This document shows positions 1,031-46,404 of a DNA stretch of 64,000 nucleotides, piece by piece (positions within the stretch are counted from its first letter, which is position 1; each line of letters begins with the position of its first letter). The position numbers were made by a program, and so were the translations under genes. The notes below the pieces were generated by a model. The model was not told the origin of the DNA. It ran no database searches and worked only from the letters and a program-made list of their open reading frames with translations. The stretch comes from Gemmatimonadales bacterium. Its GTDB lineage: Bacteria; Gemmatimonadota; Gemmatimonadetes; Gemmatimonadales; GWC2-71-9. The DNA is taken from positions 6,266 through 70,265 of the forward strand of contig DASYRJ010000033.1 in the NCBI GenBank assembly GCA_036004525.1, read 5' to 3'.

Positions 1031-2143
1031 ATGTCGAAGGTGAGAATCGGGATCGTCGGCTCACGCTTTCAGGCGGATTGCGTCGCGGGGGCGGCGAAAG
1101 CCGTACCGGAGGAAGCAGAAGTCGTGGCCGCGGCCTCGCCGACCAAGGGACACGCGGCCGGCTTCGCGAAGCGGCACGGGATCCCGCGCGCGTATACCGA
1201 CTACCGCGAGCTCCTGCGCGATCCTGACGTCGAGATGATCTGGATCACGGCGCCCAATCGGCTGCACGCACCGATCGCCATCGACGCCGCCAAGGCCGGG
1301 AAGCACGTCGTGTGCGAGAAACCGCTGTGCCTGACGATCGAGGAAGCCGATGCGATGATCGACGCCTGCCGCACGGCGGGCGTGCTGCTCCTCTACGCCG
1401 AGGAGCTGTTCTTTGCGCCGAAGTATGTGAAGGCGAAGCAGATGGCGGACGAGGGCGCATTCGGTCGCGTGCATCTGGTAAAGCAGGGCGAGAAGCACTC
1501 CGGTCCGCACGCGGAGTGGTTCTGGGACGTGGAGCAGTCGGGAGGCGGCGCGGTCATGGACCTGGGGTGCCATGGGGTCGCATTCTGCTGGTGGTTCCTC
1601 GGCAAGCCGCAGATCACGAGTGTCTACTGTCAGATGGCGACGCAAGTGCACCAACAGCGCACGCAGGGTGACGACGAGGCGGTGACGATCATGGAATTCG
1701 ACACCGGCGCCATCGGCATGGTCGAGAGCAGTTGGAACCGGCCCGGCGGGATGGACGATTGCATCGAGGTGTTCGGCGACAAGGGACAGACCTACGCCGA
1801 CCTCCTCATGGGCAACGCCCTGCCGACGTACTCAGACGTCGGATTCGGCTACGCCGTGGAAAAGGCTGCGACGACCAGAGGCTGGACGTATCCCGTGTTC
1901 GAGGAGCACTGGAACTACGGGTTCCCGCAGGAGCTGCGACACTTCGCCCGCTGCGTGCGCGGCAAGGAGACGCCCATCTCCGACGGCGAGACGGGACGCG
2001 TGGTGCAAGAGGTGCTCTATGCCGCCTACGCGTCGGCCGGACTCGGCCGGAAGGTCATGCTGCCCTTCCGCCCGACAGGCATCGCGAAGCCGATTGACCT
2101 GTGGAAGAAGATGAGGGTCACGTCAGACGGGTGCGGATCTTGA
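1031..2143 (+). CDS. Gfo/Idh/MocA family oxidoreductase (cytoplasmic)
   Basis: N-terminal Rossmann motif [10 protein letters not shown]..., EKPL motif ([10 protein letters not shown]), and the typical C-terminal alpha/beta domain. 370 aa. Confidence 0.85.
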
Positions 2144-2558
2144 TCTCCGAGGTGAGCGTCCGGTGGACCGGACAACGGTCCGCGATCTCCCGTAACTTGG
2201 CGCGCTGGTCTTCCGAAAGCTGACCGCCGAGCGAGATCTCCCGCTCGATGACGTCCAGCAATCCCTGCTTCGTCTCGCAGTCGGCGCAGTCCTCGGCGTG
2301 TATTCTGAAATGCCGCAGCCGCACGCTTACGTCACTCAGCGGCCAGCGGTTCCGTCGCGCATACAGCGCGATGGTCATCGACGTTCAGGATCCGAGCGCC
2401 GCCAGCAGCAGGTCGTAGGGGCCGGGGCCCGTATCGGTGCCGCCGTCGGCCACGGGCTCGTCGGCCACGAGGCGATGGCGACCGGCCCTGATCTCCTGGG
2501 CGAACCCCGCCGCGCTCCCGCGCACCAGTACTACGCCCGGCTCCAGCGTCTCGTCCAT
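2118..2558 (-). CDS. OsmC-family peroxiredoxin-like protein with an in-frame TGA (2385-2387) at the first catalytic Cys position; candidate selenoprotein, otherwise a pseudogene
   Basis: The tail of ORF 2385..3497 ([10 protein letters not shown]...[11 protein letters not shown]) and ORF 2118..2378 (MTIALYARR...DRCPVHRTL) share a frame and are separated only by TGA-ACG-TCG. The joined product is 146 codons. The CPV resolving-Cys motif is present, and GGAG lies 9 nt before ATG 2558. Confidence 0.55.
2352..2374 (-). promoter_or_regulatory. Candidate SECIS-like hairpin downstream of the in-frame UGA
   Basis: mRNA CC-a-UCGCGC [UGUAU] GCGCGA-c-GG. The stem starts 11 nt after the UGA, and the apical loop contains GU 19 nt after the UGA. 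Confidence 0.3.
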
Positions 2559-2596
2559 CCCAAGGCTCCGCGTTGGGGACCCCTTCGCCGCGGTGC

Positions 2597-4039
2597 TTAG
2601 TGCAGCAGGCCGAGCGTCTTCAGGTAGTCGGCCACGATGTAGGCGGGCAGCGCAAAAATGATCTTGCCCTGCGACTCCCCCTGGCCGCCGTACAGCACGG
2701 CGATCACCCGGCCTTCGCGATCGAAGATGGGGCTCCCCGACGAACCGGGCGCGCCGTATCCATCCACCTGAACGACGGCCGTCAACACCTTGCTCACGGT
2801 GCCGACGGTGAGGGTGGGCTCGGCGATGGGGCGCTGGCCGACCGCCTCCATCGGCAGGTCGAACCCCAGCGGATAGCCGATGATGGCGACCGGGTCGCCG
2901 CGCTCGATCCCCTGCCGCGAGCGGGCGAGGGCCGTGACCCGCGGCGTCCCGCCCTTGATCCGCACCCGCAGCACGCCGACGTCGGTCTCCGGGGAGACGC
3001 CGACCAGCTCGCCGGGCCAGGCCTGCACGCTCCCCGAAAAGATCACCGCGATGCGGCGAGGCGTGCGCGTGCCGTCCTCGCCCAGCAGGACGTGCTTGTT
3101 GGTCACCAGGGTGCCGTTCGAGTCCACCGCGAACGCGGTGCCGCTGAACCGCTCCCCGTCCGAGAACTCGACGATCACGATCGCCACCGCGTCCTGGTTG
3201 TTGTGGGAGATGGCGCGGTAGTCCACGCCCCCCCCCACGGCGCCCATCAGGGCGCGCTGGCGGCGCTCGGCGTCGTCGAGCTGGTTGCGCAGGCGCGCCA
3301 TGGACGTCGCGTCGCCGCCCGAGCCGGCCAGCTCGCGCCGCAGGCGCGCCGTCTCGGCCTGCGACTCGGCGAGCGCGTCGCGCACCCCCCGCAACTCCGA
3401 CTGAAAGCGCGCCGACAACTGTTGCGCGGAGTGCACCAGGCTGTCGGCGCGCGCCTGCAGCCGGATCAGCTCGCGGGCCCGCTGGCGCGCCTCCCACTGC
3501 AGCCAGCCGAAGGCCCCCGCGGTCACGATGAGTAACCCGATGAGCACCTTGGTGGTCCGGCGCAGCTGCGCCACTTCGATCGCGATCCGCACCGCGGTGC
3601 TGGAGCGGCGGGGCGGGGGAGGGGGCGCGGGCGGGGCAGCGGGCGTGGCACGGAACAGCTCGCGGGGCGTCGAGGCACGTTGCGCCATCCCCTCGGCGGC
3701 AGTCATCGCCGCCTGCTCGCCCGACTCGCCGGCGATCGCGTGGAACTCGAGTGCCGGTCCGGTCGGGCCGAAGCCAATCACGTCGCCGTCCTGCAGGATC
3801 GTGTCGCCGTCGATGCGCCGGCCGTTCACGAAGGTACCGTTGCGGCTGCCGAGGTCCTGCAACACGAACCCCTCCGCCTTGCGCACGATGGCCGCGTGGC
3901 GCGACGACACGTCGAGATCGCGCTCGGTGTCGAAGCGGACGTCGGAGAGGGGATGGCGGCCGAGGCCGATGTAGGCCTTCCGGAAGGCCTCGACTTGCCC
4001 GGCGCGGGCGCCCGACAGGAACCGGAACTGAGCTTTCAC
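2597..4039 (-). CDS. FHA domain - TM helix - coiled coil - trypsin-like (S1) serine protease fusion protein
   Basis: The GTG start overlaps the PP2C stop (GTGA). FHA motifs: GRHPLSDVRF, SRHAAI, DLGSRNGTFVNG. TM helix: VLIGLLIVTAGAFGWLQW. Heptad-rich segment follows. Protease triad contexts: TNKHVL, DVGVLRV, GAPGSSGSPIF. Confidence 0.8.
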   Translation of the reverse strand: MKAQFRFLSGARAGQVEAFRKAYIGLGRHPLSDVRFDTERDLDVSSRHAAIVRKAEGFVLQDLGSRNGTFVNGRRIDGDTILQDGDVIGFGPTGPALEFHAIAGESGEQAAMTAAEGMAQRASTPRELFRATPAAPPAPPPPPRRSSTAVRIAIEVAQLRRTTKVLIGLLIVTAGAFGWLQWEARQRARELIRLQARADSLVHSAQQLSARFQSELRGVRDALAESQAETARLRRELAGSGGDATSMARLRNQLDDAERRQRALMGAVGGGVDYRAISHNNQDAVAIVIVEFSDGERFSGTAFAVDSNGTLVTNKHVLLGEDGTRTPRRIAVIFSGSVQAWPGELVGVSPETDVGVLRVRIKGGTPRVTALARSRQGIERGDPVAIIGYPLGFDLPMEAVGQRPIAEPTLTVGTVSKVLTAVVQVDGYGAPGSSGSPIFDREGRVIAVLYGGQGESQGKIIFALPAYIVADYLKTLGLLH

Positions 4040-5076
4040 CCGTTCCGCGTGAGGTACCAGAGGAGGGCGGCCGCCGCGGCGAGCATGGCGAGCACGGCCG
4101 TGAGCAGCCGGCCGCGGGCCTCCTTCGCGGGCACCGGCGCCCGGCTCCCCTTGTACACGGGGACCGGCTCGGTGCTCGTCTCGGTGTCGATCAACGGATA
4201 CACCTGGTGCCCGACGGCCTCGTGCTCCCCGGAGGACCGCAGGCCCTCGCCGTCGAACCGAGCGATGACGACCGTGATGTTGTCGGGGCCGCCGCGCGCG
4301 TTGGCGAGCGCGATGAGCTTGTCGCACGCGGCGCCGAGCTCCCGCCCCCCTCCCTCACTGACGATCTGCGCGATCTCTTCCTTCTTCACCTGGCCCGAGA
4401 GGCCGTCGGAGCAGAGCACCAGGATGTCCCCGCGCCGCACCTCCTGGTGCGTCAGGTCGACTTTGACCTTGGGGTCGGGGCCGAGCGCCTGGAGGATGAT
4501 GTTGCGTCGCTCGCTGTGGGCGGCCTCTTCCTCGGTCAGCTCGCCGGCCTCGACGAGCCGCTGCATCAGCGACTGGTCCTTGGTGAGCTGGTGGGCCTCG
4601 CCGTGGCGGACGAGATAGGCGCGGCTGTCGCCCACCTGCGTGAGATAGAGATGGTCGGCGAGCACGCCGGCGGCCGTCGTGGTCGTGCCCATCCCGCGCA
4701 CCTCGGGATGCGCCTTGGCGTGCGCGTGGATGCTGGCGTTGGCGACCTCGACCGCCTCCTTGAGGCGGTAGGCGAAGCGCTGCGGCGTCGGCTCGTGCTC
4801 TGCGTTCCACGTCTTGGTGAGGTGCTGGTAAATCGTCTCCGTCGCCATCTGGCTCGCCAGCTCCCCGGCCGCGGCCCCACCCATCCCGTCGGCGACGACG
4901 AACAGCGTGCCGCGGTCGCCCAGGTCGTGCTGGCGCACCTGGGGCTGCAGCGAGGCATCCTGCCGGCTCAGGTCTGCGACGAGGAAGCGGTCCTCGTTGT
5001 GGTCCCGCGTCCGGCCCAGGTCGGTCTTGCCGAAGACCTGGACCCGGATGGCCTTGGGAGAGGAGCGTCCGAACAT
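4036..5076 (-). CDS. PP2C-family Ser/Thr phosphatase with C-terminal TM anchor
   Basis: Motifs GRTRDHNEDRF, VVADGMGG, LCSDGL, GGPDNITVV. C-terminal hydrophobic helix LLTAVLAMLAAAAALLWYL. Start taken at MFGRSS (ATG 5076), just after the kinase stop. Confidence 0.85.
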   Translation of the reverse strand: MFGRSSPKAIRVQVFGKTDLGRTRDHNEDRFLVADLSRQDASLQPQVRQHDLGDRGTLFVVADGMGGAAAGELASQMATETIYQHLTKTWNAEHEPTPQRFAYRLKEAVEVANASIHAHAKAHPEVRGMGTTTTAAGVLADHLYLTQVGDSRAYLVRHGEAHQLTKDQSLMQRLVEAGELTEEEAAHSERRNIILQALGPDPKVKVDLTHQEVRRGDILVLCSDGLSGQVKKEEIAQIVSEGGGRELGAACDKLIALANARGGPDNITVVIARFDGEGLRSSGEHEAVGHQVYPLIDTETSTEPVPVYKGSRAPVPAKEARGRLLTAVLAMLAAAAALLWYLTRNG

Positions 5077-5081
5077 GTCGC

Positions 5082-6641
5082 CTAGGACCCCAACGCGTGA
5101 ACGACGTTTTGACACGACGTGAGCGCCGCGTTGAGGCCGAGCCCGGTGCGAGCCCATTGCAGCGCCGAAGTCCGATTCCCCAGATCCTGCTCCGCCTGGG
5201 CGATCATGCACGCCGCGAAGGCGCGCTCGCCAACGGCGACCCCGGCCGTATTGAACACCTTCGTCGCCGAGTCTCGTTTGATCACCGAGGGACTCTCGAT
5301 CAAGCCATCGAGGATGTCGCCCGCCCGAGCCGGGTCGATGCCGGTCCGCGGGGGCGGGGGTCTCCGCGTTCCCGTGTCTCGGTTCGCCAGCGTCGTGACC
5401 GTGTGAGCCTTCTGAGAATCCCCAGTCTGCATGTTCGCCGGGTTCCCCGCTGTGTTCTGGAGCACGGCGGGGATCGAGTCTGGGCCCCCGGTCTTCGCCC
5501 CGCCGCCCTGCAAGATCACGGCGGCCGCGCCACCCAGCCCCACCACGGCCACGATCCCGGCGATGACCGGCACGCGCGACCGTCTCTTGGGCGCCGCGGG
5601 CTTCGCCACCTCGAGCAGTTGAGTTTTGGCGTCGACGCCGCTCCCTCCCCGGGTCTGGGGAACGACGGCGGTACGGCCGCGGTCCACGCCGGCAGCGGCG
5701 CCGGCGTCGGCCGCGAACTTCGCCACCGTCTGGTAGCGATCCACCGGCGTCCGGCTGAGCGCGGTGTCCAGCACGGCCTGGAGCCCCGCGGGGAACCGCA
5801 GGTCGGGGCGCGCCTGGGCGAGCGGCGTGGGCTCGTCGGTGAGCCGCTTGATCATCGTCTCCTGGACCGTCGTCGCCTCGAACGGCAGCTTGCCGGCGAG
5901 CATGCGATAGAACACGAGCGCCAACGAGTAGAGGTCGCTGCGCCCGTCGAGCTTGTCTCCCGAGAGCTGCTCGGGGCTCATGAATTCCGGCGTCCCCACC
6001 ACGAGTCCGGTCTTCGTGACCTTCTGGCCCGACTCGTCGCCCCCCTCCCCCCCCACCGCCTTGGCGATCCCGAAGTCCACCACCTTCACGACGTCGGCGC
6101 CGTCCTTCCGGCGGGCGAGCATGATGTTGTCGGGCTTCAGGTCGCGGTGGACGATGCCGAGGTCGTGCGCCGCCTGGAGCGCGTCGGCCACCTGGCTGAA
6201 GATGTGAACGGCGCGCGGCACCGGGAGAACGCCCTCCCGCTCCAGCAGGTCGGTGAGCGGCTCCCCCTCGATGAACTCCATCGCCAGATAGATGATGCCA
6301 TCGGCCGTCTCGCCGAAGTCGTAGATGGCGCAGACGTTCGGATGCGTGATGCGGCTCGCGTTCGCGGCCTCGCGGTTGAACCGGGCCACGGCGTCGGGGT
6401 CGTGCACCATCGAGGGGTTCATCACCTTGATGGCGCTGCGCCGGCCCATCTTCACGTGCTCGGCGAGGTACACCTGGCCCATCCCGCCCTCGCCCAGCTT
6501 CTTGAGCACGTGGTAGCGGTCGGCCACCACCTGGCCCACCAGGTTGGAGGCGGGTGCGGCCGCCCGCAGCGTCTGCCCGTCGTTGGGACAGAACTTCACG
6601 TCGTCGGCGTACTCGGTCGAGCAGACGGGGCAGATTTTCAC
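5082..6641 (-). CDS. Ser/Thr protein kinase with N-terminal zinc ribbon, TM helix and C-terminal extracytoplasmic domain
   Basis: CPVC..x..CPNDG zinc ribbon. Hanks kinase motifs GEGGMGQVY, AIKV, HRDLKPDN, DFGIAK, SPEQ. TM helix VIAGIVAVVGLGGAAAVIL. Confidence 0.9.
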   Translation of the reverse strand: MKICPVCSTEYADDVKFCPNDGQTLRAAAPASNLVGQVVADRYHVLKKLGEGGMGQVYLAEHVKMGRRSAIKVMNPSMVHDPDAVARFNREAANASRITHPNVCAIYDFGETADGIIYLAMEFIEGEPLTDLLEREGVLPVPRAVHIFSQVADALQAAHDLGIVHRDLKPDNIMLARRKDGADVVKVVDFGIAKAVGGEGGDESGQKVTKTGLVVGTPEFMSPEQLSGDKLDGRSDLYSLALVFYRMLAGKLPFEATTVQETMIKRLTDEPTPLAQARPDLRFPAGLQAVLDTALSRTPVDRYQTVAKFAADAGAAAGVDRGRTAVVPQTRGGSGVDAKTQLLEVAKPAAPKRRSRVPVIAGIVAVVGLGGAAAVILQGGGAKTGGPDSIPAVLQNTAGNPANMQTGDSQKAHTVTTLANRDTGTRRPPPPRTGIDPARAGDILDGLIESPSVIKRDSATKVFNTAGVAVGERAFAACMIAQAEQDLGNRTSALQWARTGLGLNAALTSCQNVVHALGS

Positions 6642-7642
6642 GACGGCAGCTCGACGCGCAGGAGTTTATCGCCGGCCATGATCCGCGACCCGTGCCGCAA
6701 CACCATGGCCCCGCGGGCCGCGATCGCGACGCCGTTCCGGCTGTGATCGTCGAGCAGGACGAAGTCGGCGTCCTCGGAGCGGACCGTAGCGTGCTGCGCG
6801 CTCATCGACGGGTCGTACGGGAAGATCCAGTCGCCGCGCTCGCGTCCGATGTGGACGTCGCGCCCGGGCGACAGCTGAATCATGTCGCGCGAGCTGCCGT
6901 CGGACCGGAGCTGCGTGAGGCTCGCGATGTCGGCGCTCGGGACCAGGCTTCCCATGCGCCGGGTCGCGTCCGCATCGGGCGCGTGGGGCCCCGGATACCC
7001 GAGCCGGCGGAACCGGATCACCTGCGACCCGATCAGCACCAGGTCGCCGTCCACCAGGCGGTAGGGTTCTTCGAGGAACACCCACGTCCCGTTCCGGCTC
7101 CCCAGGTCGCGCACTTCCAGACGGCCCTCCTCCCACGACACCTTGGCGTGCAGCGGCGAGAGAAAGGCGTCATCCGGGAACCGGATGTCCCCTTCCTGGC
7201 GCCCGATCGTCGTGGACGCGTGCTTGCGCTCGAACCGCTTCACTTCCTTGCCGGCATCGTCCAGCAGGACCAGGGTGAGCGAGTAGTCACCGCGTTTATC
7301 CGGGGTGAGGCGGGAGGGCGCTCCCGTGCCCGCCGCGACGTCGCCGAGCGGGGCGCCGCAGGTGGCGCAGAACCGGGTTCCCGGCGTGACCGGCGAGGCG
7401 CAGCGCGAGCAGGTGGGGCCCGAGCCGGGCGCCGTGAGCCGGCGGCCGCAGTGCGGGCAAAACGGCAGCTGATCGCTGGCGGGCGAGCCGCAGAACGGAC
7501 AGGCGGGAGACTTCCCCGGCGGGGTCGAGATGGGCGGGTCCGCCAGACCTATCGCGGCAGCTTTCGTCAGGGGTTTTCCGCAGTCGGCGCAAAACTGCGC
7601 GCCGGCCTCATTTTGGCGGCCGCAGAAGGTGCAGGCGCTCAC
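6638..7642 (-). CDS. Triple zinc-ribbon / double FHA domain protein
   Basis: The GTG start lies upstream, and the stop overlaps the kinase start (ATGA). Three CxxC-N-CxxC ribbons (CTFCG..CADCG; CPFCG..CPHCG; CSRC..CATCG). Two FHA cores (GRQEGDIRF..LGSRNGTWV; GRERGDWIF..DHSRNGVAI). Confidence 0.85.
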   Translation of the reverse strand: MSACTFCGRQNEAGAQFCADCGKPLTKAAAIGLADPPISTPPGKSPACPFCGSPASDQLPFCPHCGRRLTAPGSGPTCSRCASPVTPGTRFCATCGAPLGDVAAGTGAPSRLTPDKRGDYSLTLVLLDDAGKEVKRFERKHASTTIGRQEGDIRFPDDAFLSPLHAKVSWEEGRLEVRDLGSRNGTWVFLEEPYRLVDGDLVLIGSQVIRFRRLGYPGPHAPDADATRRMGSLVPSADIASLTQLRSDGSSRDMIQLSPGRDVHIGRERGDWIFPYDPSMSAQHATVRSEDADFVLLDDHSRNGVAIAARGAMVLRHGSRIMAGDKLLRVELPS

Positions 7643-7751
7643 GCGCGGGGGTGCTCCACGAGGCGCATAAAGTAAGGTAGGCCAATCTATTGGGGAAACT
7701 CACGCGTCGAAAGGGGCTGCGGCTTCTGACGCAGCGCGAACCTCCCTCGTC

Positions 7752-7781
7752 TCGAACCGCGCTCCGTGGCCAGCGTATAAT
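7752..7781 (+). promoter_or_regulatory. Candidate sigma70-type promoter (perfect TATAAT at 7776-7781) giving a near-leaderless transcript for the GWxTD-like gene
   Basis: TATAAT is an exact match in a 70% GC background and sits 10 nt before ATG 7792. A weak -35 (TCGAAC) lies 18 nt upstream. Confidence 0.3.
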
Positions 7782-7791
7782 GAGGCGAGGT

Positions 7792-10106
7792 ATGTCCCGC
7801 GCGCTCCGCATCGTCCTCGCCGTGCTCGCCGGCGCCGCCGTCCCGCTGGCCGGCCAGTCCCCTGCCGATCGAGCGGCGCTCGGGGCGCTGCGCGACTCGC
7901 TCGCGGGCGTGCAGGACAGCGTCGCGCTGAAGCAGCTCGAGGCCTCGACCATCGTCGTCGCGAGGCAGCGCCGCGACGATCCCCTCATCCACCTGCGCCT
8001 CGGTTTCATCGCCTACCGGCTCGGCGAGCTGACCACCACCAAATCCCACTACGACGACGGCGCGGGGGAATTCGAGTGGGCGACCGAGCTGCGGCCCGAT
8101 TGGCCCTACCCCTGGTACGGGTTGGGATTAGCGGAGCTGGCGATCGGCGAGCACTCGGTGCTCGCGATCGAGAACCTCCGTCAGATGCTCGGCAAGGATT
8201 ACCTCTCGAAGGCGGCGAAGGCGTTTGCGCGCGCGACGGAGGCCGACCCGGCCTTCGCCTCCGCGGTGGTCGACCTCGCGAACACCGCGCTCACCCAGCG
8301 CATCCGCCCCCGGCTCGACGTCGCGCTCGGCGCCGTGCGCCTTGCCGCGGCGTCGCCGGCGGGACGGCACGCCGAGGTACAGCTGGTGCGCGGGCGGGTG
8401 GAGCGCGAGGCGGGCGAGGCCGACTCCGCGCTCGCGGGGTTCACCACCTACCTCGGAGTCGGCGGCGACTCGGGGGTGGGTCTGCTCGAGCTGGCGCGCA
8501 CGTACTACTTTGCCCGCCGCCCGGGGGACGGCTGGCGCGCGTACTTCGCCGGCGCGCGCACCGCCACCTCGGCGCCCGCGCTCACCCTGTACCGCACCGA
8601 CCTCTCCTGGATCGCCGACTCCGCCGAGCTGGCGGCGTTCGACGCCCTCCCCGACCCGGCGACGCGGGTGCGCTGGCTGGAGGAGTTCTGGACGCGGCGC
8701 GACGTGGTCGAGGCACGCGACGTGGGCGAGCGCCTAGCGGAGCACTACCGCCGTTGGTTCTATGCCCGGCGCAGTTTCCGGCTCGTCAGCCGGCACCGGC
8801 ACTACGACATCACCGAGGTCTACCGCCCCAAACAGGTCGAGTTCGATGACCGGGGCGTGATTTACCTGCGCCACGGCGAGCCCGACCGGCGCGCGCGGTT
8901 CACCTGCCCCGAGATCGACCAACCCAACGGCGACGGCTGCGCGGCGAACGAGAGCTGGCTGTACCACCGCGACGCGGGAGCGGGGGGGGGGGGGAGGGGG
9001 GGGACCTGATCTTCCACTTCGCGGCGCGCGGCGACGTGCAGGACTTCAAGCTCGTCGAGAGTCTCGTGGACGTGCTGGGGTTGAGCCGCGCGGTGCGGGC
9101 GGAGGCGCTGGTGGATCCCCAGGTCTCGGAGCTGTACGCGACGCGCGACCAGTTCGGCTCATTGTACGGGCGCGTGGGCCACAGCCCGCGCCCTCCCGCC
9201 GGTCAGCTGGCGCGCGACCGCGCCCTGGGCCGCCGCAGCATCGCCCTCGGTACGACGAGCGACAGCTATGCGCAGCGGTTCGAGCAGTCGCTGGACGTCG
9301 TGGCGAGCGAATTCGTGGTCGGCGGGAAGGGGGCCGAGGGCGGCCAGACGCTCCACGTCGTCTTCGCCATCCCGGGCGACCGGCTCGCGGGCGAGCCCGC
9401 CGCCGACGGCCTGCGCTATTACCCGCTCCGCTTCCGGCTCCTGGTGTCCGACACCGCCGACCACGTGATCGCGCGGCTCGACACGCTGCGCGTGTTCGCC
9501 GCGCGGCAGGCGGTGCGCGGAGGCGCGTATCTCGTCGGACGGCTCGCGCTGCCGGTGCCGCCGGGCACCTACCGCTACCGCCTCTTGGTCGTGACCCCCG
9601 ACGGCACCGCGGGCGACCTGGTGCGGTACGACTCGCTCGCGGTCGACGCGCTGGGCGGCGCGGGGGGCGCAGGGGGAGGGGGGGGGGCGCGATTCGCGGT
9701 GAGCGACGTGGTCGTGGGACGGGAGGGCTCGGGGCTGGTGTGGGCGCCTCCCGGCGACACGGTGCGCCTCAATCCGCTGAACCGGTTCCCCGAGGGGAGC
9801 GCCGCCGAGTTGTATTACGAGATCTACGGGCTGACGCGCGGCGCCCCGTATCACACCGTCGTGCGGCTCGAGCGCGAGGGCGGCCGCTCGGTGTTCGGCG
9901 CGATCGGCCGCCTGTTCGGCGGCGGCCGCGCGCCCGTCCTGCTCGAGTTCGACGCCGCCGCCGACGGGCCCGTCACGCGCGTGCACCGCGCGGTGGAGCT
10001 GCGCGACGTGACGAAAGGCACGTACCGTCTCACGGTGGTCATCACCGATCCCGCGAGCGGCGCCGGCGTCACGCGCGCGCGCCGTTTTCAAGTCGTGGCG
10101 CGTTAG
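7792..10106 (+). pseudogene. Secreted TPR-like / GWxTD-family protein interrupted by a frameshift in a G13 homopolymer (two ORFs: 7792-9009 and ~9006-10106)
   Basis: Signal peptide MSRALRIVLAVLAGAAVPLAG. GWxTD-type block: FWTRRD..EHYRRWFYARRSF..FDDRGVIYLRHGEPD..ESWLYH. The sequence continues in the adjacent frame directly after the G tract (DLIFHFAARGDVQDFKLV...). Confidence 0.55.
8982..9003 (+). repeat. Homopolymeric tract G13-A-G8 at the frameshift point
   Basis: Direct count: G 8982-8994, A 8995, G 8996-9003. A single-G change in tract length would restore one ~770-codon frame. Confidence 0.9.
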
Positions 10107-10164: not shown

Positions 10165-12024
<1,860 letters not shown>

Positions 12025-30662: not shown

Positions 30663-31148
30663 ATGGCGGGGGCGGCGAGCTGGTCGTTTAACGAGAACGA
30701 CTTCAAGCAGATTCAGGCCCACCTGCAGGCGTTCCTCCGGGACTGCAACGCCCGCTGCGCCCTGCTCGTGGACCGGAACGGCCAGCTCGTCGCCACGGTG
30801 GGGGAGACGCCGCAGTTCGACCCCACAGCGTTCGCCTCGCTCACCGCCGCCGACTTCAGCGCCAACGACCAGCTCGCCAAGATGATCGGCGAGCCGGAAT
30901 TCGCGTCGCTCGTCCACCAGGGCGAGCGCGAATCCATGTATCTCGCCGACGTCGCGAAACGCGTCATTCTCGTGGTGCTGTTCGATCAGCGCGCCACGCT
31001 CGGCCTCGTGAAGATCAAGGCCAGGGGCGTGGTGGAGAATCTCAACAAGGTGTTCGAGGAGATGTTCAATCGGGTGGGTGCCGGGCCGACCCAGAAGAAG
31101 GGTCTGCTCGAAGGGGCGGAAGACGAAATTGACAAACTCTTCGGGTAA
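30663..31148 (+). CDS. mglB: Roadblock/LC7 domain protein, MglB-like GTPase-activating protein
   Basis: Collinear similarity to Myxococcus MglB (LVDRNGQLVATVG, SLTAADFSAN, LGLVKIK). It lies directly upstream of mglA. Confidence 0.8.
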   Translation: MAGAASWSFNENDFKQIQAHLQAFLRDCNARCALLVDRNGQLVATVGETPQFDPTAFASLTAADFSANDQLAKMIGEPEFASLVHQGERESMYLADVAKRVILVVLFDQRATLGLVKIKARGVVENLNKVFEEMFNRVGAGPTQKKGLLEGAEDEIDKLFG

Positions 31149-31160
31149 GGGGACGCGCCC

Positions 31161-31835
31161 ATGTCGATGATCAACTACGCGTCCCGCGAGATCAACTGCA
31201 AGCTCGTGTACTACGGGCCCGGCCTCGGCGGCAAAACGACCAACCTGGAGCACATCTACGGGAAGGTCTCGCCCAACACGCGCGGCAAGATGATCTCGCT
31301 CGCCACCGAGACCGAGCGCACCCTCTTCTTCGACTTTCTCCCCGTGGACCTGGGCACGATCCGGGGCTTCAAGACGCGGTTCCACCTCTACACCGTGCCC
31401 GGCCAGGTGTACTACAACGCGAGCCGCAAGCTCATCCTGAAGGGCGTGGACGGCATCGTGTTCGTGGCCGACAGCCAGATCGAGCGGATGGAAGCGAACG
31501 TCGAATCGATGCAGAACCTGTACGACAACATGGCCGAATACGGCTACGACCTCACCAAGATCCCGTTCGTGATCCAGTACAACAAGCGGGACCTCCCCAA
31601 CGCCGCCCCGATCAGGGAGCTCCAGGCCGCGCTCAATCCGGGGTGGCCGATCGAAGACGCCGCGCAGCAGAAGGTGACCCCCGACCCCGCGCACCCGGGC
31701 GAGAACCTGATCGAGAAGGCCGGCGCCGAGTGGGTCGGCCACGCGGCCTACCACGAGGCCGTGGCGGTGCGCGGGGACGGCGTGTTCGACACGCTGAAGG
31801 CGGTCAGCAAGTTGGTTCTGAAGACCCTGAGCTGA
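31161..31835 (+). CDS. mglA: MglA-type Ras-like GTPase with ~30-aa C-terminal insertion
   Basis: [67 protein letters not shown] are nearly identical to Myxococcus MglA. An extra segment [37 protein letters not shown] is present. Confidence 0.9.
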
Positions 31836-39120: not shown

Positions 39121-40278
39121 TCACCCACCCGTCGCGGGCGTGATCCGCACCATCACCACGCCGTGCGCGGGAACGGTCGCATTGAAGCGGCCCGTGACCG
39201 TGCCGACGTCGGTGTGCGTCCAGAGATCCCGCACCCGCGCGGGGCCGCTGATGCCGATCGCCCGCCAGGAAGCGGCGATCACCGTTTGTAGGCCCGATCG
39301 GTTGAGCAGCACGACGGCGCGCGAGCCGTCGGCCAGCGGCTTCGACCACACCTGGAGATCGATCCCGGGTTCCTGGACCAGCATCCCCTGCACGCCGAGC
39401 GAGTCCTGGTCCACCGCGATCACCTCTTTGTTAGCGAGGATCTCGCGAGTCGCGGGTGGCATCGCGCGGACGTCGTTCCCCGCCATGAGCGGCGCGGCCA
39501 TCACGGCCCAGAGACTGAAGTGGGCGCGGTACTCGTCGTCGGTCATCCCGCCGTTGCCCACCTCCAGCATGTCGGGATCGTTCCACGCGCCCGGACGGGC
39601 GGCGAGCGCATACTGGCTCGAGAGATCGAGGATGGCGATCATGCTGGCCCAGCGGTCGCCGATGTCGCCGGTAGTGCGCCACAGATTGCCGGTGCGCGGG
39701 CCCCACTCCCACGGGTGGTTCGAGCCCCATTCGCAGATGCTGAAGACGATGGGCCGGCCCGCCTTGGCGAGCGCGTCACGGAACTTGGCGTACTGCGTGG
39801 GCCCGTCGAGCCCCTCCGAGTTGCACCAGTCCTCCTTCACGTAATCGACGCCCCATTCCGCGAACGTGCGGGCGTCGATCTCCTCGGAGCCGTAGGTGCC
39901 CGGGCGGCCCTGACAGGTGCGACGCCCGGCGTCGGTGTAGATCCCGAACTTGAGTCCCTTGGCATGGACGTAATCGGCGAGCGGCTTGATGCCGCCCGGG
40001 AATCGGGCCGAGTCGGCCACGAGGCGGCCGGCGCGGTCGCGCGCCACCTGCCAGCAGTCGTCGATGACGACGTACTGGTAGCCTGCGTCGCGCATTCCGC
40101 TCGCGACCAGCGCGTCGGCGGTCTCCCTGATCAGCTGGGCGCTCACGTCGCAGTGGAAATGGTTCCAGCTGTTCCATCCCATCGGGGGCGTGCGGGCCAG
40201 GCCGTTGTCGAGTGCGGGGCGGCCCTCAAAGGAGAGGGCGAGGGCGAGGCAGAGTAGCGTCGGGAATCGCGCGGACAT
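39121..40278 (-). CDS. GH27 alpha-galactosidase (secreted)
   Basis: Signal peptide. LARTPPMGWNSWNHF, YVVIDDCW, DYVKEDWC. Confidence 0.85.
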   Translation of the reverse strand: MSARFPTLLCLALALSFEGRPALDNGLARTPPMGWNSWNHFHCDVSAQLIRETADALVASGMRDAGYQYVVIDDCWQVARDRAGRLVADSARFPGGIKPLADYVHAKGLKFGIYTDAGRRTCQGRPGTYGSEEIDARTFAEWGVDYVKEDWCNSEGLDGPTQYAKFRDALAKAGRPIVFSICEWGSNHPWEWGPRTGNLWRTTGDIGDRWASMIAILDLSSQYALAARPGAWNDPDMLEVGNGGMTDDEYRAHFSLWAVMAAPLMAGNDVRAMPPATREILANKEVIAVDQDSLGVQGMLVQEPGIDLQVWSKPLADGSRAVVLLNRSGLQTVIAASWRAIGISGPARVRDLWTHTDVGTVTGRFNATVPAHGVVMVRITPATGG

Positions 40279-40546
40279 GGCCGGGCTTGAACGTGAGGTC
40301 CACGTGACGCGGCCGCAAGACGCACGTGCTTGTTGGGGAGGGTGTGGCGTTTGTTCAGCAGGTGTCGCGTCCGCGCCACTCGCGGCCGCGGCCTACACCG
40401 ATCCGTCGCTGGTGATCCACTTCACAGCCGGAAGGCTTCAGTCGGAAACGGGGGGCACGCGGTTTGCCGCGACCTCTCACCGCAGCAAGCTCCCGAGTCT
40501 AGCCAGCCGCTTCATCCACGCCGTCACCCCTTGCCCGGGGGGTTTC

Positions 40547-43500
40547 ATGACACGCTCCGTCGTTCTATTCGCTTTCACTTTGGTGGCGGTCCCGATGGCT
40601 CGCGCCCAGGACGCGGGCACGATTGCCGGGACAGTCAAGGGTCGCGAGACCGGCGCTCCCTTGCCCGGCGCCAGCGTCACGGTCCTCGGGACGCGGTTCG
40701 GCACCAACACCGGGCCGGACGGCCGGTACACCATCGCCGGCGTCCCCGCCGGCAGCTACCGCGTGCGGGCCCGATTCATCGGCTACAAGACCCTGGACGA
40801 CAGCGCCGTCGTCGTGGTCGCGGGCCAGGTGACCACCGCCGACTTCCAGCTCGCCGCGCAGGCGATCGAGCTGCAAGCGGTCGTGGCCGTCGGCTACGGC
40901 ACGCAGACGAAGGCGACGTTGACGGGGGCGGTCAGCGCCGCCCCGGGCGAGGAGCTCGAGGCGGTGCCCACCGTCAACGTGGCGAACACGCTCGCCGGCA
41001 AGCTGCCGGGGGTGATCACGATCAACCAGAGCGGCGAGCCCGGGTACGACGGGGCGACGATCCGGATCCGGGGCAGTCACACCCTGAACAACAACGACGC
41101 GCTCGTCGTCATCGACGGCGTCCCCGATCGTGCCGGCGGCCTGGAGCGGCTCGACCCGCGGGAGATCGAAAGCATCAGCGTCCTGAAGGACGCCACGGCG
41201 GCCATCTACGGCTCACGCGCGGCCAACGGCGTCATCCTGATCACGACGAAGCGCGGGGAGGGCACGGCCCCGAAGGTCACGGCGAGCTTCAACCAGGGCG
41301 TGATCCACCCCACGCGGCTTCCCCAGATGGCCGACGCAGCGACGTACATGACGATGCTCAACGAGATCGACTTGTACCGGAACCGGACCCCACGCTACTC
41401 CGAGGACCTGATCCAGAAATTCCGGGAAGGCGCCGACCCCTGGCTGTACCCGAACACCGACTGGTTCGGCGAGGTCATCAAGCCCATCTCGCTGCAGAGT
41501 GTGGGACATGTGGCCCTCACCGGCGGCGCCGACCGGATCGGGTACTATCTCTCCCTGGGCGGTCTGACGGAGGACGGCTATTACCGGAACAGCGGGACCC
41601 GGTACAACCAGTACAGCTTCCGGAGCAACATCGACGGCCGGCTGAGCCAAAACGTCAGCGTGCAGTTCGACGTCTCCGGACGCCTCGAGGACCGCAACTT
41701 CCCGGCCCGAAGCGCGGGCTCGATCTTCCGGGCGCTCATACGCGGCAAGCCGAACCTCCCGGGGTATTGGCCCAACGGGCTCCCCGGACCCGACATCGAG
41801 TTCGGCGACAATCCCGTGGTGACGTCGACGCAGGCGACGGGATACGACAACGACGAGCGGTATTACCTGCAGGGCAACCTGCGCGTGGACCTGAAGGTGC
41901 CGTGGGTGAGCGGCCTGACGCTCCGCTACAATGGGGCCTACGACCTGCGCATGTTGAACCGGAAGTCGTGGCGGACCCCTTGGACGCTGTACACCTGGGA
42001 CGGGACGCGCGGCGCGGACAGCCAGCCGGTGCTGAAGCCTGCGACGCGGGGCTACAGCGCGCCCGAGCTCACCGACTATGACCAGCAGTCCACCGGTATC
42101 CTGCTGAACTTGATCGCGGAATACCGGCGGAACATCGGCGAGCACACCGTCGGCATCCTGGGCGGCATCGAACGACAGAAGGCGGACAGCGCGTATTTCA
42201 GCGCTTTCCGGAAGAACTTCATCTCGGACCAGCTCGACGAGATCTTCGCCGGCGGCGATGCTGAAAAGACCAACGACGGCCGCGCCTACGTTGGAGCGCG
42301 GCAGAACTACTTCACCCGCCTCAACTACGCCTTCCGGGACAAGTACCTGCTCCAGTTCGTCGGGCGCTCCGACGGGTCGTATATCTTCGCGAAGGATACG
42401 CGCTTCGGCTTCTTCCCGGGCGTCTCGGCGGGATGGCGTATCTCGGAAGAGCCCTTCTTCCGCGACCACGTGCCGCTCTTCAACGAGCTGAAGCTGCGGG
42501 CGTCGTGGGGCAAGACCGGCAACGACCGGATCGAAGAATGGCAGTACTTGGCCACCTATGGATTCGGCGGCGGTTATGTCTTCGGCGGCGACCGGGAAGT
42601 GAAGAGCATCTTCCCCACCCGGACCCCCAATCCCGCGGTGACCTGGGAGGTCGCGACCCAGCGCGACCTCGGTCTCGAGGGCATCCTGTTCGACAACCGG
42701 CTCTCGTTTGTATTCGACGTCTTCAAAGAGCAGCGGAACAACATTCTCCTGCGCCGGAACGCCTCGGTGCCTCGGACCACCGGGCTGAGCCTGCCGCGCG
42801 AGAACATCGGCGTGGTCTCGAGCTGGGGCTACGACGGATCGCTCACCTGGCGGCAGCGGCTGGCGAGCGGCGTGTCCTACGATGTGACGTTCACCGGCGG
42901 CTATGCCCAGAACAAGATCCTGTTCTGGGACGAGCCCCCGGGAGCGCCGCCGTGGCAGCGTTCGACGGGCCACCGGATGAACACCGGCCTGTATTACCGG
43001 GCGATCGGCGTGTTCAAGGACCAGGCCGCCGTGGACGCCTACCCCCACTGGGACGGAGCGCGCCCGGGCGACATCATCTTCGAGGACGTGAACCACGACG
43101 GCCGGATCAACGGAGACGACCGCGTCCGTAACGATAGGAACGGCGATCCCACCTTCACCGGCGGCCTCAAGCTCGGCGCGCAAGCGAGGAGTTTCGAGGT
43201 CACCGTGTTCTTCCAGGCCGCCTTCGATGCCGTGCAGTACTTCCGGACGGAATCCGGCGACATCGGCAACTTCACCCGGGAATTCGCCGAACATCGTTGG
43301 ACGCCGGAGCATCCGAGCGACAAATACCCGCGAACGTTCAACCGGCTCGACGAGTACTGGGTCGCGAACGCGAACACCTATTTCCTGCGCGATGCGAGCT
43401 ACATCCGCCTGAAGTCCGTCGAGGTCGGGTACCGGCTGCCGGATCGCCTGGCGCGCGCCATGGGTGTGGGGAACATGCGGATATACGCCAGCGGATACAA

Positions 43501-43612
43501 TCTCTTCTTGTGGGACCAGTTCAAGGTGGTGGACCCCGAGACGCGGGACTCACAGGGCCAGTACTACCCCCAGCAGCGCGTCATCAACATCGGCGCGTCT
43601 GCCGGGTTCTAA
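40547..43612 (+). CDS. SusC/RagA-type TonB-dependent outer-membrane transporter
   Basis: Signal peptide. Carboxypeptidase-regulatory-like domain (GTIAGTVKG..TGAPLPGASV). Plug region (IRIRGSHTLNNNDALVVIDG..VLKDATAAIYGSRAANGVILITTKRG). C-terminal barrel ending NIGASAGF. Confidence 0.9.
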   Translation: MTRSVVLFAFTLVAVPMARAQDAGTIAGTVKGRETGAPLPGASVTVLGTRFGTNTGPDGRYTIAGVPAGSYRVRARFIGYKTLDDSAVVVVAGQVTTADFQLAAQAIELQAVVAVGYGTQTKATLTGAVSAAPGEELEAVPTVNVANTLAGKLPGVITINQSGEPGYDGATIRIRGSHTLNNNDALVVIDGVPDRAGGLERLDPREIESISVLKDATAAIYGSRAANGVILITTKRGEGTAPKVTASFNQGVIHPTRLPQMADAATYMTMLNEIDLYRNRTPRYSEDLIQKFREGADPWLYPNTDWFGEVIKPISLQSVGHVALTGGADRIGYYLSLGGLTEDGYYRNSGTRYNQYSFRSNIDGRLSQNVSVQFDVSGRLEDRNFPARSAGSIFRALIRGKPNLPGYWPNGLPGPDIEFGDNPVVTSTQATGYDNDERYYLQGNLRVDLKVPWVSGLTLRYNGAYDLRMLNRKSWRTPWTLYTWDGTRGADSQPVLKPATRGYSAPELTDYDQQSTGILLNLIAEYRRNIGEHTVGILGGIERQKADSAYFSAFRKNFISDQLDEIFAGGDAEKTNDGRAYVGARQNYFTRLNYAFRDKYLLQFVGRSDGSYIFAKDTRFGFFPGVSAGWRISEEPFFRDHVPLFNELKLRASWGKTGNDRIEEWQYLATYGFGGGYVFGGDREVKSIFPTRTPNPAVTWEVATQRDLGLEGILFDNRLSFVFDVFKEQRNNILLRRNASVPRTTGLSLPRENIGVVSSWGYDGSLTWRQRLASGVSYDVTFTGGYAQNKILFWDEPPGAPPWQRSTGHRMNTGLYYRAIGVFKDQAAVDAYPHWDGARPGDIIFEDVNHDGRINGDDRVRNDRNGDPTFTGGLKLGAQARSFEVTVFFQAAFDAVQYFRTESGDIGNFTREFAEHRWTPEHPSDKYPRTFNRLDEYWVANANTYFLRDASYIRLKSVEVGYRLPDRLARAMGVGNMRIYASGYNLFLWDQFKVVDPETRDSQGQYYPQQRVINIGASAGF

Positions 43613-43626
43613 CGGGGACAACGACC

Positions 43627-45426
43627 ATGAGACTCCACATCCGCAGGACCTTGACGGCGGCGCTCGTTCTCCTCGGACTCACGGGCTGCAACGGGATCCT
43701 CGACCTGAGCCCGAAGGATCAGCTGTCGGACCAGGCCGTCTTTAACGACCCCAATCTGGCCGAAGCCTTCCTGAACGACATTTATCGGGGCTTGGGGCAC
43801 GGGCTCTACGAGATCATGTTGAGCTCCATCAGCGACGAGTCGCATTTCATCCACAACTACAACACCGAACCGGTCGTGCAGTCGCTCATCACCTCGAGCG
43901 ACCGGGGCGCCATCGACGACGACCGGTTCAATCACTTCGACTGGAACGATAACTACTCCCGCATCCGGCAGGCGAACATCTTCCTCAGTCACATCGACGC
44001 GACTGACTTCGACCCGGCATGGAAGCAGCGGATGAAGGGAGAAGCGTTCTTCCTGCGGGCGTACTTCTACCACAACCTGATGCGGATGTACGGCGGCGTG
44101 CCGCTGATCACGAAGGTCTACGGCCTGAACGAGGACTATCAGGTCGCGCGGAACAGCTTCAAGGAGACGGTCGACTTCGTCGTCGCCGATGCCGACTCCG
44201 CAGCCGCCCTGCTGCCGCTCGTGCACACCGCCAGCAACCTCGGCCGCGCGACCAAAGGGGCCGCACTGGCGCTCAAGGCGCGGGTGCTGCTCTACGCGGC
44301 GAGCGACCTGTACAACGTGAACCCCAGCGGCCAGCCGGAGACGGGGTATACCAGCCCGCAGGATCGTACCGCCCTCTGGAGGGCCGCGAAGAACGCCGCC
44401 AAGGCGGTGATGGACCTCGGGATCTACAGCCTGTTCCGGCCCGCCCCGGCGAGCCCGCAGGAGGCGGCCAAGAACTACGCCGACCTGTTCCTGCAGCAGA
44501 CCAGCCCGGAAGCGATCATGAGCCGCTTCTTCCTGACCAGCCGGGGCGGGGCCGACGGCTACCATCCCGGCCGGGACAACGGCCCGAACGGCTACCACAC
44601 CTGGGGCGGGAATACGCCGATCCAGAATCTGGTGGACGACTATCGCATGGCTGACGGCTCGAAGTTCGACTGGGCCAACCCCGTGGAAGCCGCGGCGCCC
44701 TACGCGAACCGGGATCCTCGGTTCTATGGATCCATCCTGTTCGATGGCGCCCAATGGCGGGAGCGTCCCACCGACGTGAAGGCGCTCGACCCGTACGGCA
44801 TCATCCAGGGGTTCCGGGAGCTCAAGGTCCCCGACTCAACGGCGGTGGGCGGCTTCCGCGTGGTGGGCGGCCTCGATACGCGCGACGGCCCGATCGAGGA
44901 CTGGAACGGCAGCTACTCCGGCTACTACATCCGGAAGTTCATCGATCCGTCCTACAACGCCCAGTTCACCAGGCAGCAGGTGCCGTGGATTTTCTTCCGG
45001 TACGCCGAGATCCTGTTCCATTACGCCGAGGCATCGATCGAGCTGGGGGAACTGGGAGACGCGCTCGGCGTCCTGAACCAGATCCGGCGCCGCGCCGGCA
45101 TGCCGGAGTTCTCGACCAGCCTCGATCAGGCGACCCTGCGGGATGAATACCGCAACGAGCGGCGTGTCGAGATGGCGTTCGAAGAGCAGCGCTTCTTCGA
45201 CGTGCGCCGCTGGATGATCGCGCCCCAGGTGCTGAGCAAGAACGCCGTCGGCATCAACATCTTCCTCGAGGGTGATAACCGGATCGACCGGTCGACCTGG
45301 CGGAACTACCGCTACGACACGCTGAAGATCCAGGACCGGGCATGGAACGACAAGATGTACTTCATGCCGATTCACCGGGACGAGTTGAACCGCAACAGCC
45401 AGCTCAGGCAGAATCCTGGATACTAG
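43627..45426 (+). CDS. SusD/RagB family lipoprotein
   Basis: Lipobox LLGLTGC. RAYFYHNLMRMYGGVPL. C-terminal NPGY. Confidence 0.85.
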   Translation: MRLHIRRTLTAALVLLGLTGCNGILDLSPKDQLSDQAVFNDPNLAEAFLNDIYRGLGHGLYEIMLSSISDESHFIHNYNTEPVVQSLITSSDRGAIDDDRFNHFDWNDNYSRIRQANIFLSHIDATDFDPAWKQRMKGEAFFLRAYFYHNLMRMYGGVPLITKVYGLNEDYQVARNSFKETVDFVVADADSAAALLPLVHTASNLGRATKGAALALKARVLLYAASDLYNVNPSGQPETGYTSPQDRTALWRAAKNAAKAVMDLGIYSLFRPAPASPQEAAKNYADLFLQQTSPEAIMSRFFLTSRGGADGYHPGRDNGPNGYHTWGGNTPIQNLVDDYRMADGSKFDWANPVEAAAPYANRDPRFYGSILFDGAQWRERPTDVKALDPYGIIQGFRELKVPDSTAVGGFRVVGGLDTRDGPIEDWNGSYSGYYIRKFIDPSYNAQFTRQQVPWIFFRYAEILFHYAEASIELGELGDALGVLNQIRRRAGMPEFSTSLDQATLRDEYRNERRVEMAFEEQRFFDVRRWMIAPQVLSKNAVGINIFLEGDNRIDRSTWRNYRYDTLKIQDRAWNDKMYFMPIHRDELNRNSQLRQNPGY

Positions 45427-45444
45427 GGCTACAGGAGGAAAGCG

Positions 45445-45936: not shown

Positions 45937-45949
45937 GCTGGCGCGTGCG

Positions 45950-46393: not shown

Positions 46394-46404
46394 GAGGGAT
46401 CGTC

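Follow-up and report, generated by a model that had tools for sequence, protein, structure and literature searches.

Gene structure and family assignment

The window analyzed here, a 64,000-nucleotide stretch of contig DASYRJ010000033.1 (positions 6,266 to 70,265 of the forward strand) from the Gemmatimonadales bacterium assembly GCA_036004525.1, contains on its minus strand an OsmC-like gene that is interrupted by one in-frame TGA, here proposed to encode selenocysteine (Sec). The gene comprises 146 sense codons, running from an ATG at 2558-2556 to a closing TGA at 2120-2118, and the in-frame TGA (2387-2385) occupies codon 58 and leaves 88 codons downstream. The joined product has the form MDETLE...LLLAALGS-[TGA]...DCADCET...RCPVHRTL...RLT, and the MDETLE N-terminus is common to it and its homologues in the alignment. 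Public gene calls and the open reading frame (ORF) listing divide the gene into pieces of 57 and 86 aa, the second of which would begin at an ATG at 2378, three codons past the TGA. A first-pass annotation of the sequence had described a single minus-strand gene broken by one in-frame TGA at 2385-2387, and the sequence is as described there. The length of 146 codons and the GGAG motif ahead of the ATG at 2558 also stand, but the spacing between motif and start measures 7 nt instead of the 9 nt given.

With Cys placed at codon 58, the joined protein matches the Pfam OsmC profile PF02566 with 61.7 bits (E 9.7e-17; gathering cutoff 27.5 bits) over profile positions 1-99 of 100, and the OsmC domain of PDB entry 9wo1, 'Osmotically inducible protein C', is matched at E 4.7e-34. 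Among 5.8 billion proteins searched, homologues number in the thousands, and the best 120 of them are full-length and 70-87% identical; the Joint Genome Institute (JGI) labels of the Cys homologues we take to be of the COG1765 type. When the protein is aligned with its 21 closest full-length homologues (70-87% identity), the TGA column coincides with the invariant Cys of the motif G-x-C-T-S-M-T. The first redox position is thus a TGA in the window and Cys in 21/21 homologues, and C129, in the C-terminal CPV motif, is invariant, in agreement with the earlier placement of the TGA at the first conserved Cys and of an intact Cys in the CPV motif. Residues D90, C91, C94, E95 and T96 are likewise invariant in the alignments, and this D-C-x-x-C-E-T motif recurs in the alignment with 9wo1. 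C91 and C94 constitute a second Cys pair besides the catalytic one, for which a metal site or a second redox centre is conceivable.

The fold was examined on an AlphaFold model of a Cys orthologue, P0001, that is 87% identical to the window protein (predicted local distance difference test score 77.5; predicted template modelling (TM) score 0.73). The 50 top PDB matches of this orthologue model are all OsmC/Ohr structures, with TM scores of 0.47-0.60 normalised to the query length, and residue 58 lies within helix 47-69, the long central helix of the model. Profile matches and the orthologue's predicted structure together show the window protein to have the family and, as modelled, the fold of OsmC/Ohr proteins. 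In E. coli OsmC (Cys59/Cys125) and in Ohr (Cys60/Cys124), the first Cys is peroxidatic and the second resolving. By analogy with these two proteins, peroxidase chemistry would be expected here as well, with residue 58 as the peroxidatic and Cys129 as the presumed resolving residue.

Table 1. Coordinates of the OsmC-like gene, the associated hairpin and the neighbouring genes in the window, followed by Dehalococcoidia-type hairpins at other loci (L numbers).
Feature	Coordinates	Strand	Basis or remark
OsmC-like gene, putative selenoprotein, complete	2118..2558	-	Translation; PF02566 match; start and length as in 146-aa Cys homologues
GGAG, Shine-Dalgarno-like motif	2566..2569	-	Read from sequence; 7 nt before ATG 2556-2558
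In-frame UGA, codon 58, proposed Sec codon	2385..2387	-	On the first conserved (peroxidatic) Cys column
Full hairpin CC-a-UCGCGC[UGUAU]GCGCGA-c-GG	2352..2374	-	Core plus A/C mismatch plus outer CC:GG pairs
Core of putative Sec insertion hairpin	2355..2371	-	5' arm UCGCGC 2371-2366; loop UGUAU 2365-2361; 3' arm GCGCGA 2360-2355
Codons 91-94, C-A-D-C inside D-C-x-x-C-E-T	2277..2288	-	Extra Cys pair typical of the subfamily
TGT, Cys129 in R-C-P-V-H-R-T-L	2172..2174	-	Second conserved OsmC/Ohr Cys; invariant in alignment
FHA and trypsin-like protease gene	2597..4039	-	Pfam; ends 38 nt before the OsmC start, same strand
PP2C gene	4036-5076		Pfam; upstream of the FHA-protease gene
Ser/Thr kinase gene	5082-6641		Pfam; farther upstream
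FHA/zinc-ribbon gene	6638-7642		Pfam; farther upstream
Dehalococcoidia-type hairpin	L022:7594-7641	-	
Dehalococcoidia-type hairpin	L037:2915-2962	-	
Dehalococcoidia-type hairpin	L044:361-408	-	
Dehalococcoidia-type hairpin	L064:5247-5294	-	
Dehalococcoidia-type hairpin	L083:1184-1231	+	
Dehalococcoidia-type hairpin	L086:7173-7220	-	
Dehalococcoidia-type hairpin	L097:4049-4096	-	

Recurrence of the TGA and selection on the downstream frame

A lone in-frame stop raises the default worry of a sequencing or assembly error at 2385-2387, which nothing specific to this site favours. Five further contigs, obtained from five samples through three assembly pipelines (three JGI metagenomes and two Logan assemblies), encode the 86-aa C-terminal piece exactly, and the TGA is present in 5/5 of them, together with the same split into 57 and 86 aa. 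In 501 bases of alignment to the window, just two sites vary, one of them intergenic and the other a synonymous ATC-to-ATT change. The TGA is thereby reproduced by five independent assemblies, and the probability of an error is negligible. A general reassignment of TGA (codes 4 or 25) is ruled out, as TGA is the most frequent stop in the window (69.6% GC), terminating 26 of its 47 genes, the OsmC-like gene included.

The distribution of the TGA form was surveyed with a DNA pattern back-translated from L-G-x-TGA-T-S-M-T-x-x-x-Y-A-R-R. Matches were found in 106 GTDB stretches, with one genome per species, and in at least 120 metagenome contigs. By record title, the GTDB matches come from Gemmatimonadota (~37), Methylomirabilota/Rokubacteria (~36), Acidobacteriota (~17), Chloroflexota/Dehalococcoidia (~11) and others (~5). 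In all, 233 TGA-bearing copies were gathered, including those of the five further assemblies, and the TGA sits on the same Cys column in 233/233 pattern matches. The nearest relatives of the OsmC-like gene belong to Gemmatimonadota metagenome-assembled genomes (MAGs), with 92% and 90% identity over an 86-aa block. At the TGA column, where the first-pass annotation had proposed comparing relatives, many carry TGA and others carry TGC or TGT.

The downstream frame is complete within the contig in 217 copies, has exactly 88 codons after the TGA in 162 of the 217, and retains the C-terminal Cys-Pro motif in 208. Comparison of the window with its nearest Sec relatives gives ratios of nonsynonymous to synonymous substitution rates (dN/dS) of 0.11-0.18 after the TGA, and the median over 178 random pairs is 0.22 after the TGA and 0.20 before it. 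The open frame, the Cys-Pro motif and the dN/dS values thus indicate that the region past the TGA is translated and is under protein-level selection equal to that of the upstream region.

These data bear directly on the possibility of a pseudogene or nonsense allele, in which a TGC- or TGT-to-TGA mutation has inactivated an OsmC gene and only a 57-residue fragment, or nothing, is made. A single nucleotide change suffices to turn a Cys codon into TGA, the nearest full-length database homologues all have Cys, gene callers divide the gene in two, about 8 of 217 TGA copies elsewhere are frameshifted or truncated, and no sel genes were found in the window or in the fetched loci. The same TGA is, however, present in 106 species-level genome stretches from several phyla, and the 88-codon downstream frame is open, with its Cys-Pro motif, at a dN/dS of about 0.2 that equals the upstream value, where a dead gene would approach 1. 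Inactivation would also leave unexplained the synonymous constraint on the hairpin just past the TGA, described below, and is considered very improbable.

A division of the protein into two separate polypeptides, one of 57 aa and one of 86 aa initiated at the ATG at 2378, which would assemble into an OsmC-like fold, agrees with the presence of an ATG three codons past the TGA and with the 86-aa product predicted by gene callers. The corresponding Met61, however, is the near-invariant Met of T-S-M-T in the uninterrupted Cys forms, which points to a structural residue and not to a start. Such a division would moreover remove exactly the catalytic residue, and the junction always lies on the Cys column, which makes this arrangement extremely unlikely.

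Some features of the gathered set stand apart from these comparisons. The approximately eight copies that are frameshifted or truncated past the TGA (L076, L093, L104, L137, L143, L170, L189 and L223) may be real pseudogenes or assembly errors. Two or three TGA-bearing OsmC copies occur in some genomes or contigs: L025, L033 and L053 belong to one Methylomirabilota MAG (SMAG_U5944), and pairs of copies lie 1-3 kb apart on L121 (807-850 and 1704-1747) and on L139 (620-663 and 3196-3239). The downstream sequence of the Sec-OsmC on the 2.6-kb contig CAZOOE010000791.1 (L009), labelled 'uncultured Clostridia bacterium', matches that of an Acidoferrales (Acidobacteriota) MAG (L032), and this contig is probably misbinned.

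A conserved hairpin downstream of the UGA

The mRNA can form a hairpin that starts at the 11th nucleotide past the UGA, has a spacing of 19 nt from this codon to the apical loop and folds at -12.5 kcal/mol. Its position at 2352-2374, the GU in its loop and the 19-nt distance are as the first-pass annotation gave them. In the published model of the bacterial selenocysteine insertion sequence (SECIS) element, an apical loop of 3-9 nt with a G in its first two positions and an upper stem of 4-16 bp lie 16-37 nt from the UGA, with a minimum free energy of at most -7.5 kcal/mol (PMC13188914). The hairpin in the window, with its UGUAU loop, 6 + 2 bp, 19-nt spacing and -12.5 kcal/mol, agrees with this bacterial SECIS (bSECIS) model in every respect, and the same agreement is found in 168 of 179 unique Sec sequences; the folding proposed from the first reading of the sequence is borne out in both.

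Codon usage in this region is constrained beyond the protein sequence. The hairpin core is encoded by codons +5 to +10 after the UGA (I-A-L-Y-A-R). In the set of 203 unique Sec-form sequences, four- and six-fold degenerate codons outside the core have a synonymous-codon entropy of 1.1-2.1 bits, versus 0.09 bits at codon +5 (ATC), 0.00 at +6 (GCG), 0.28 at +7 (CTG), 0.32 at +9 (GCG) and 0.61 at +10 (CGA); the Tyr codon +8, which lies in the loop, is free to vary (0.95 bits). The low-entropy codons are precisely those that make UCGCGC[UGUAY]GCGCGA. CGA is ordinarily a rare codon. At +10 it is used in 89% of the sequences, versus approximately 5% at the adjoining Arg codon +11.

Base pairing was assessed by explicit pair counts. 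The six core pairs are formed in 93-100% of 138 distinct sequences, and the outer CC/GG pairs, which are clade-specific, in approximately 50%. Conservation of the hairpin in TGA-bearing homologues thus holds for the core at 2355-2371, but for the outer pairs in only about half of them. The other half of the sequences (ACG...CGC) can adopt a shifted register with a bulge, pairing C13-G34 and G14-C33, and a C at the third position of Thr(+4) goes with a G at the third position of Arg(+11) with an odds ratio of 10.7 (p 1.6e-12, uncorrected for phylogeny). Compensatory replacement of a U-A pair by C-G is found in 8-9 sequences, in which Ala GCC at +5 occurs together with CGG at +10, and one variant has a UUG...CAA double change in the stem. 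The synonymous constraint and the compensatory changes, though the latter are few, show, in these sequence comparisons, the signature of RNA-level selection on the hairpin, and this comparative evidence is strong.

At the corresponding distance from the UGA, the Sec forms of Dehalococcoidia/Chloroflexota instead have a stable stem of another sequence, CCUCCUCC...GGAGGAAGG, with folding energies of -10 to -16 kcal/mol. Because a G is missing from the first two positions of its loop, this hairpin fails the consensus bSECIS model.

Cys forms and possible exchange between Sec and Cys

The DNA sample of Cys forms is small, consisting of ten exact-protein look-ups and seven plasmid loci. The core codons of the hairpin are retained in those soil Cys forms that lie nearest the Sec clade, at a dS of 0.2-0.58 from the closest Sec form. 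The codons GCG CTG TAY GCG CGA are intact in L232 (1277-1717), L234 (10001-10441), L235 (5001-5441), L236 (3001-3444) and L237 (2754-3197). In farther Cys forms (dS ~0.54-1.6), one to four pairs are broken by changes of GCG to GCC or GCA and of CGA to CGC. The decay can be ordered stepwise through L239, L241 and L251, and then L242, L243, L252 and L254. None of the seven proteobacterial genes for alpha/beta-hydrolase-OsmC fusions has all six core pairs. Overall, the core stem is perfect in 131/141 Sec sequences versus 5/12 soil Cys sequences (p 3e-5, uncorrected for phylogeny). Scans of viral contigs with the TGY and TGA versions of the pattern gave zero matches.

A tree of an 86-aa block intermingles Sec and Cys forms, with at least ~24 switches between them; this is a crude tree built by the unweighted pair group method with arithmetic mean (UPGMA), and the count is indicative only. 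The simplest reading of these sequence data, which they suggest, is repeated exchange of Sec and Cys with decay of the SECIS element after fixation of Cys, and the hairpins in the near Cys forms look like relic SECIS elements left by Sec-to-Cys conversion. Reversion from Sec to Cys is currently held to be rare in bacteria. If the Cys alleles do carry slowly decaying relic SECIS elements, such reversions would be common in this clade. The Sec/Cys pairs at graded divergence would provide a natural series for the gain, loss and decay of SECIS elements.

Proposed selenocysteine decoding and catalysis

Taken together, the conserved TGA column, the selection past it and the constrained hairpin argue that the gene very probably encodes a genuine selenoprotein, a Sec-containing thiol (selenol) peroxidase of the OsmC/Ohr family. 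The UGA at codon 58 would be decoded and not read as a stop, with the hairpin that begins 11 nt past it acting as a bacterial SECIS element. This element would recruit SelB·GTP·Sec-tRNA(Sec) to the ribosome, Sec would be inserted, and 88 more codons would be translated. On the long central helix, Sec58 would then substitute for the peroxidatic Cys. A hydroperoxide is expected to oxidise Sec58 to the selenenic acid, which Cys129 of C-P-V-H could resolve into a selenenylsulfide that a thiol reductant would then reduce. The SelB/SECIS mechanism, the Sec machinery and selenium incorporation are all put forward on the basis of the sequence.

Several observations weigh against this interpretation. 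Neither selA, selB and selD nor a tRNA-Sec was found in the 64-kb window, whose 47 genes contained no SelA, SelB or SelD domain by Pfam. The E. coli proteins SelA, SelB and SelD likewise gave no tblastn match in the fetched loci, which total 1.54 Mb, and ARAGORN found no tRNA-Sec across all fetched loci. The hairpin by itself is weak evidence in a 70% GC genome, where the bSECIS model has little discriminating power without comparative data: 12.5% of random in-frame positions in window genes precede a hairpin that agrees with the model in full, a proportion that falls to 2.7% when an energy at least as good is also required, and the 76-nt fold at 2320-2395 has a z-score of +0.52 relative to shuffled sequences. 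No Rfam family of the SECIS type was found in a gathering-cutoff scan of the window or in a permissive scan of 2250-2450, and the hairpin region matches no Rfam family. Covariation is thin, as the core stem is nearly invariant, with changes on both sides in only two of eight pairs and a covariation score (0.082) that is matched by one slid control (-2, 0.088). The association and Fisher tests carry no correction for phylogeny. Lastly, close Cys orthologues carry the same hairpin, and hence the hairpin alone does not mark Sec use.

The UGA could also be read through without Sec, by a selC*/selB* tRNA-Cys(UCA), by an opal-suppressor allo-tRNA or by near-cognate Trp insertion. SECIS-dependent Cys insertion would give identical sequence signatures. 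A selC* tRNA-Cys with selB* has been described in anaerobic delta-proteobacteria, Firmicutes and Nitrospirae, and allo-tRNAs that possibly suppress stop codons in soil Acidobacteria (PMC5389517). However, selC* has been reported only from anaerobes that also have a full Sec system (PMC5389517), there is no report of it in Gemmatimonadota, and a UCA anticodon is present in 0/23 tRNAs of the fetched loci. The hairpin fits the Sec-specific bacterial SECIS consensus, and a costly UGA is hard to explain if TGC suffices, since Cys alleles arise freely in the family. None of the present results favours read-through by a tRNA other than tRNA-Sec, which is considered very improbable.

No literature on Sec use in Gemmatimonadota was found. 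For Methylomirabilota, large selenoproteomes have been reported, including one MAG with 63 predicted selenoprotein genes.

Relationship to known selenoproteins

Selenoproteins of this kind are already known. An 'OsmC-like protein' selenoprotein family was described from the Sargasso Sea in 2005 with three sequences, the motif UxxT and the assignment COG1765 (PMC1088965), found again with five sequences in the Global Ocean Sampling survey in 2008 (PMC2398784), and tabulated as a prokaryotic selenoprotein family in reviews (PMC9312934, PMC13188914). The first-pass annotation was thus right that OsmC-like Sec forms have been noted in metagenomic surveys but not that they are confined to them, as the family is established in reviews and in NCBIfam (NF041052). 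The published proteins and the window protein have in common the PF02566 domain, Sec in place of the first redox Cys, a SECIS element downstream and widespread Cys homologues. By description, which is the level at which the two were compared, the published family consists of a handful of marine reads with UxxT, whereas the window clade has U-T-S-M-T and D-C-x-x-C-E-T and occurs in soil and groundwater phyla; the T residues of U-T-S-M-T are at +1 and +4, not at +3.

The best NCBIfam match of the window protein is NF041052, 'OsmC_like_Se, OsmC-related (seleno)protein', in which residues 21-145 align with profile positions 16-140 of 144. The score of 57.1 bits is below the cutoff of 95 bits, and six other members of the TGA clade, from five phyla, score 35.7-65.7 bits against the same cutoff. 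As judged from these scores and motifs, the TGA clade is a sister subfamily outside NF041052 that is marked by U-T-S-M-T, D-C-x-x-C-E-T and C-P-V-H-R-T-L. Its position outside this model is the apparent reason that the gene is left split in annotation. The soil clade represents a large branch whose genes are broken in two by gene callers and which the curated model does not reach. As a consequence, an antioxidant enzyme is probably missing from many inventories of soil genomes; the 200-odd sequences gathered here would suffice for a model that recovers the clade. The broader proposition, that the clade is an unrecognised, abundant soil Sec subfamily outside NF041052 that switches between Sec and Cys, with relic SECIS elements in its Cys alleles and, in Dehalococcoidia, a SECIS of equivalent structure that departs from the consensus, is offered tentatively, as a reading that falls somewhat short of probable.

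The closest solved relative is PDB 9wo1, the C-terminal OsmC domain of a 'bifunctional alpha/beta hydrolase/OsmC family protein' encoded by proteobacterial plasmid genes. Both proteins have motifs of the type G-A-C-T-x-M-T, D-C-x-x-C-E and K-C-P-V-H-K-T-L. The 9wo1-type proteins, however, are fusions of ~400 aa with Cys, whereas the window protein is a stand-alone domain of 146 aa with the proposed Sec. The 9wo1-type genes do not have the conserved hairpin, with Arg at +6 and the codons GCC and CGC.

Like the E. coli fdhF-type SECIS and the bSECISearch consensus, the window hairpin is an in-coding hairpin directly after the UGA with a stable upper stem, and its 5-nt apical loop, its G-U at loop positions 2-3 and its 19-nt spacing agree with them. 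Its sequence does not resemble that of the fdhF element, a clear lower stem is not conserved, and the Dehalococcoidia members depart from the bSECISearch consensus in the stem and loop described above. By these comparisons, the mechanism of Sec decoding appears to be the ordinary bacterial one, which leaves the known principles of Sec decoding unchanged. In Sec-containing peroxiredoxins and glutathione peroxidases, Sec occupies the peroxidatic position and is resolved by Cys or another thiol. These enzymes have a thioredoxin fold, in contrast to the unrelated OsmC/Ohr fold of the window protein.

Gemmatimonadota, Methylomirabilota, Acidobacteriota and Chloroflexota are understood as mostly aerobic phyla. 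There is evidence that Sec use extends beyond anaerobes (PMC5029168), and the OsmC case adds to it. The results speak for a sizeable selenoproteome in the dominant phyla of soil, a matter relevant to how selenium availability in soil shapes microbial defence against oxidative stress.

Genomic context and other features of the window

Upstream of the OsmC-like gene lie genes for an FHA and trypsin-like protease protein, a PP2C protein, a Ser/Thr kinase and an FHA/zinc-ribbon protein. The first-pass annotation had placed the OsmC-like gene as the last cistron of this kinase/phosphatase/FHA operon. The common strand and the 38-nt gap agree with this placement and make co-transcription plausible, but the co-location is specific to this species. 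The FHA-trypsin/PP2C neighbourhood is found only in its near-identical contigs (L001-L005), and the neighbours at the remaining Sec and Cys loci are unrelated, so that no functional tie to the signalling genes is to be assumed. Orthologues of one neighbouring gene, 86-90% identical, are present in a Gemmatimonadales MAG and on a metagenome contig; with the Gemmatimonadota relatives of the OsmC-like gene, this makes a Gemmatimonadales origin of the window most likely.

On the plus strand, two ORFs of 439 and 356 aa (7690-10106 and 10165-12024), for which no Pfam match was found, lie in the interval separating the FHA/kinase cluster from a second Ser/Thr kinase with a zinc ribbon and a PEGA domain. 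Farther along this strand, a TonB-dependent receptor of 1140 aa (40190-43612) is followed, within 43612-47001, by ~1.8 kb with no confident gene call, then by two ORFs with only a TonB Plug domain (45445-45936 and 45950-46393) and one with an outer membrane protein beta-barrel (46405-47001). These Plug and beta-barrel ORFs may be broken or duplicated receptor genes.

No further in-frame-TGA selenoprotein candidate was found among the window genes. A same-frame TGA junction at 30648 was considered and rejected, as it separates recR from the gene adjacent to it. Right after the series signal recognition particle RNA - dnaX - ybaB - recR, at 30663-31835 on the plus strand, a Roadblock/LC7 protein is followed by a small Arf-like GTPase, forming an MglB/MglA-like pair.

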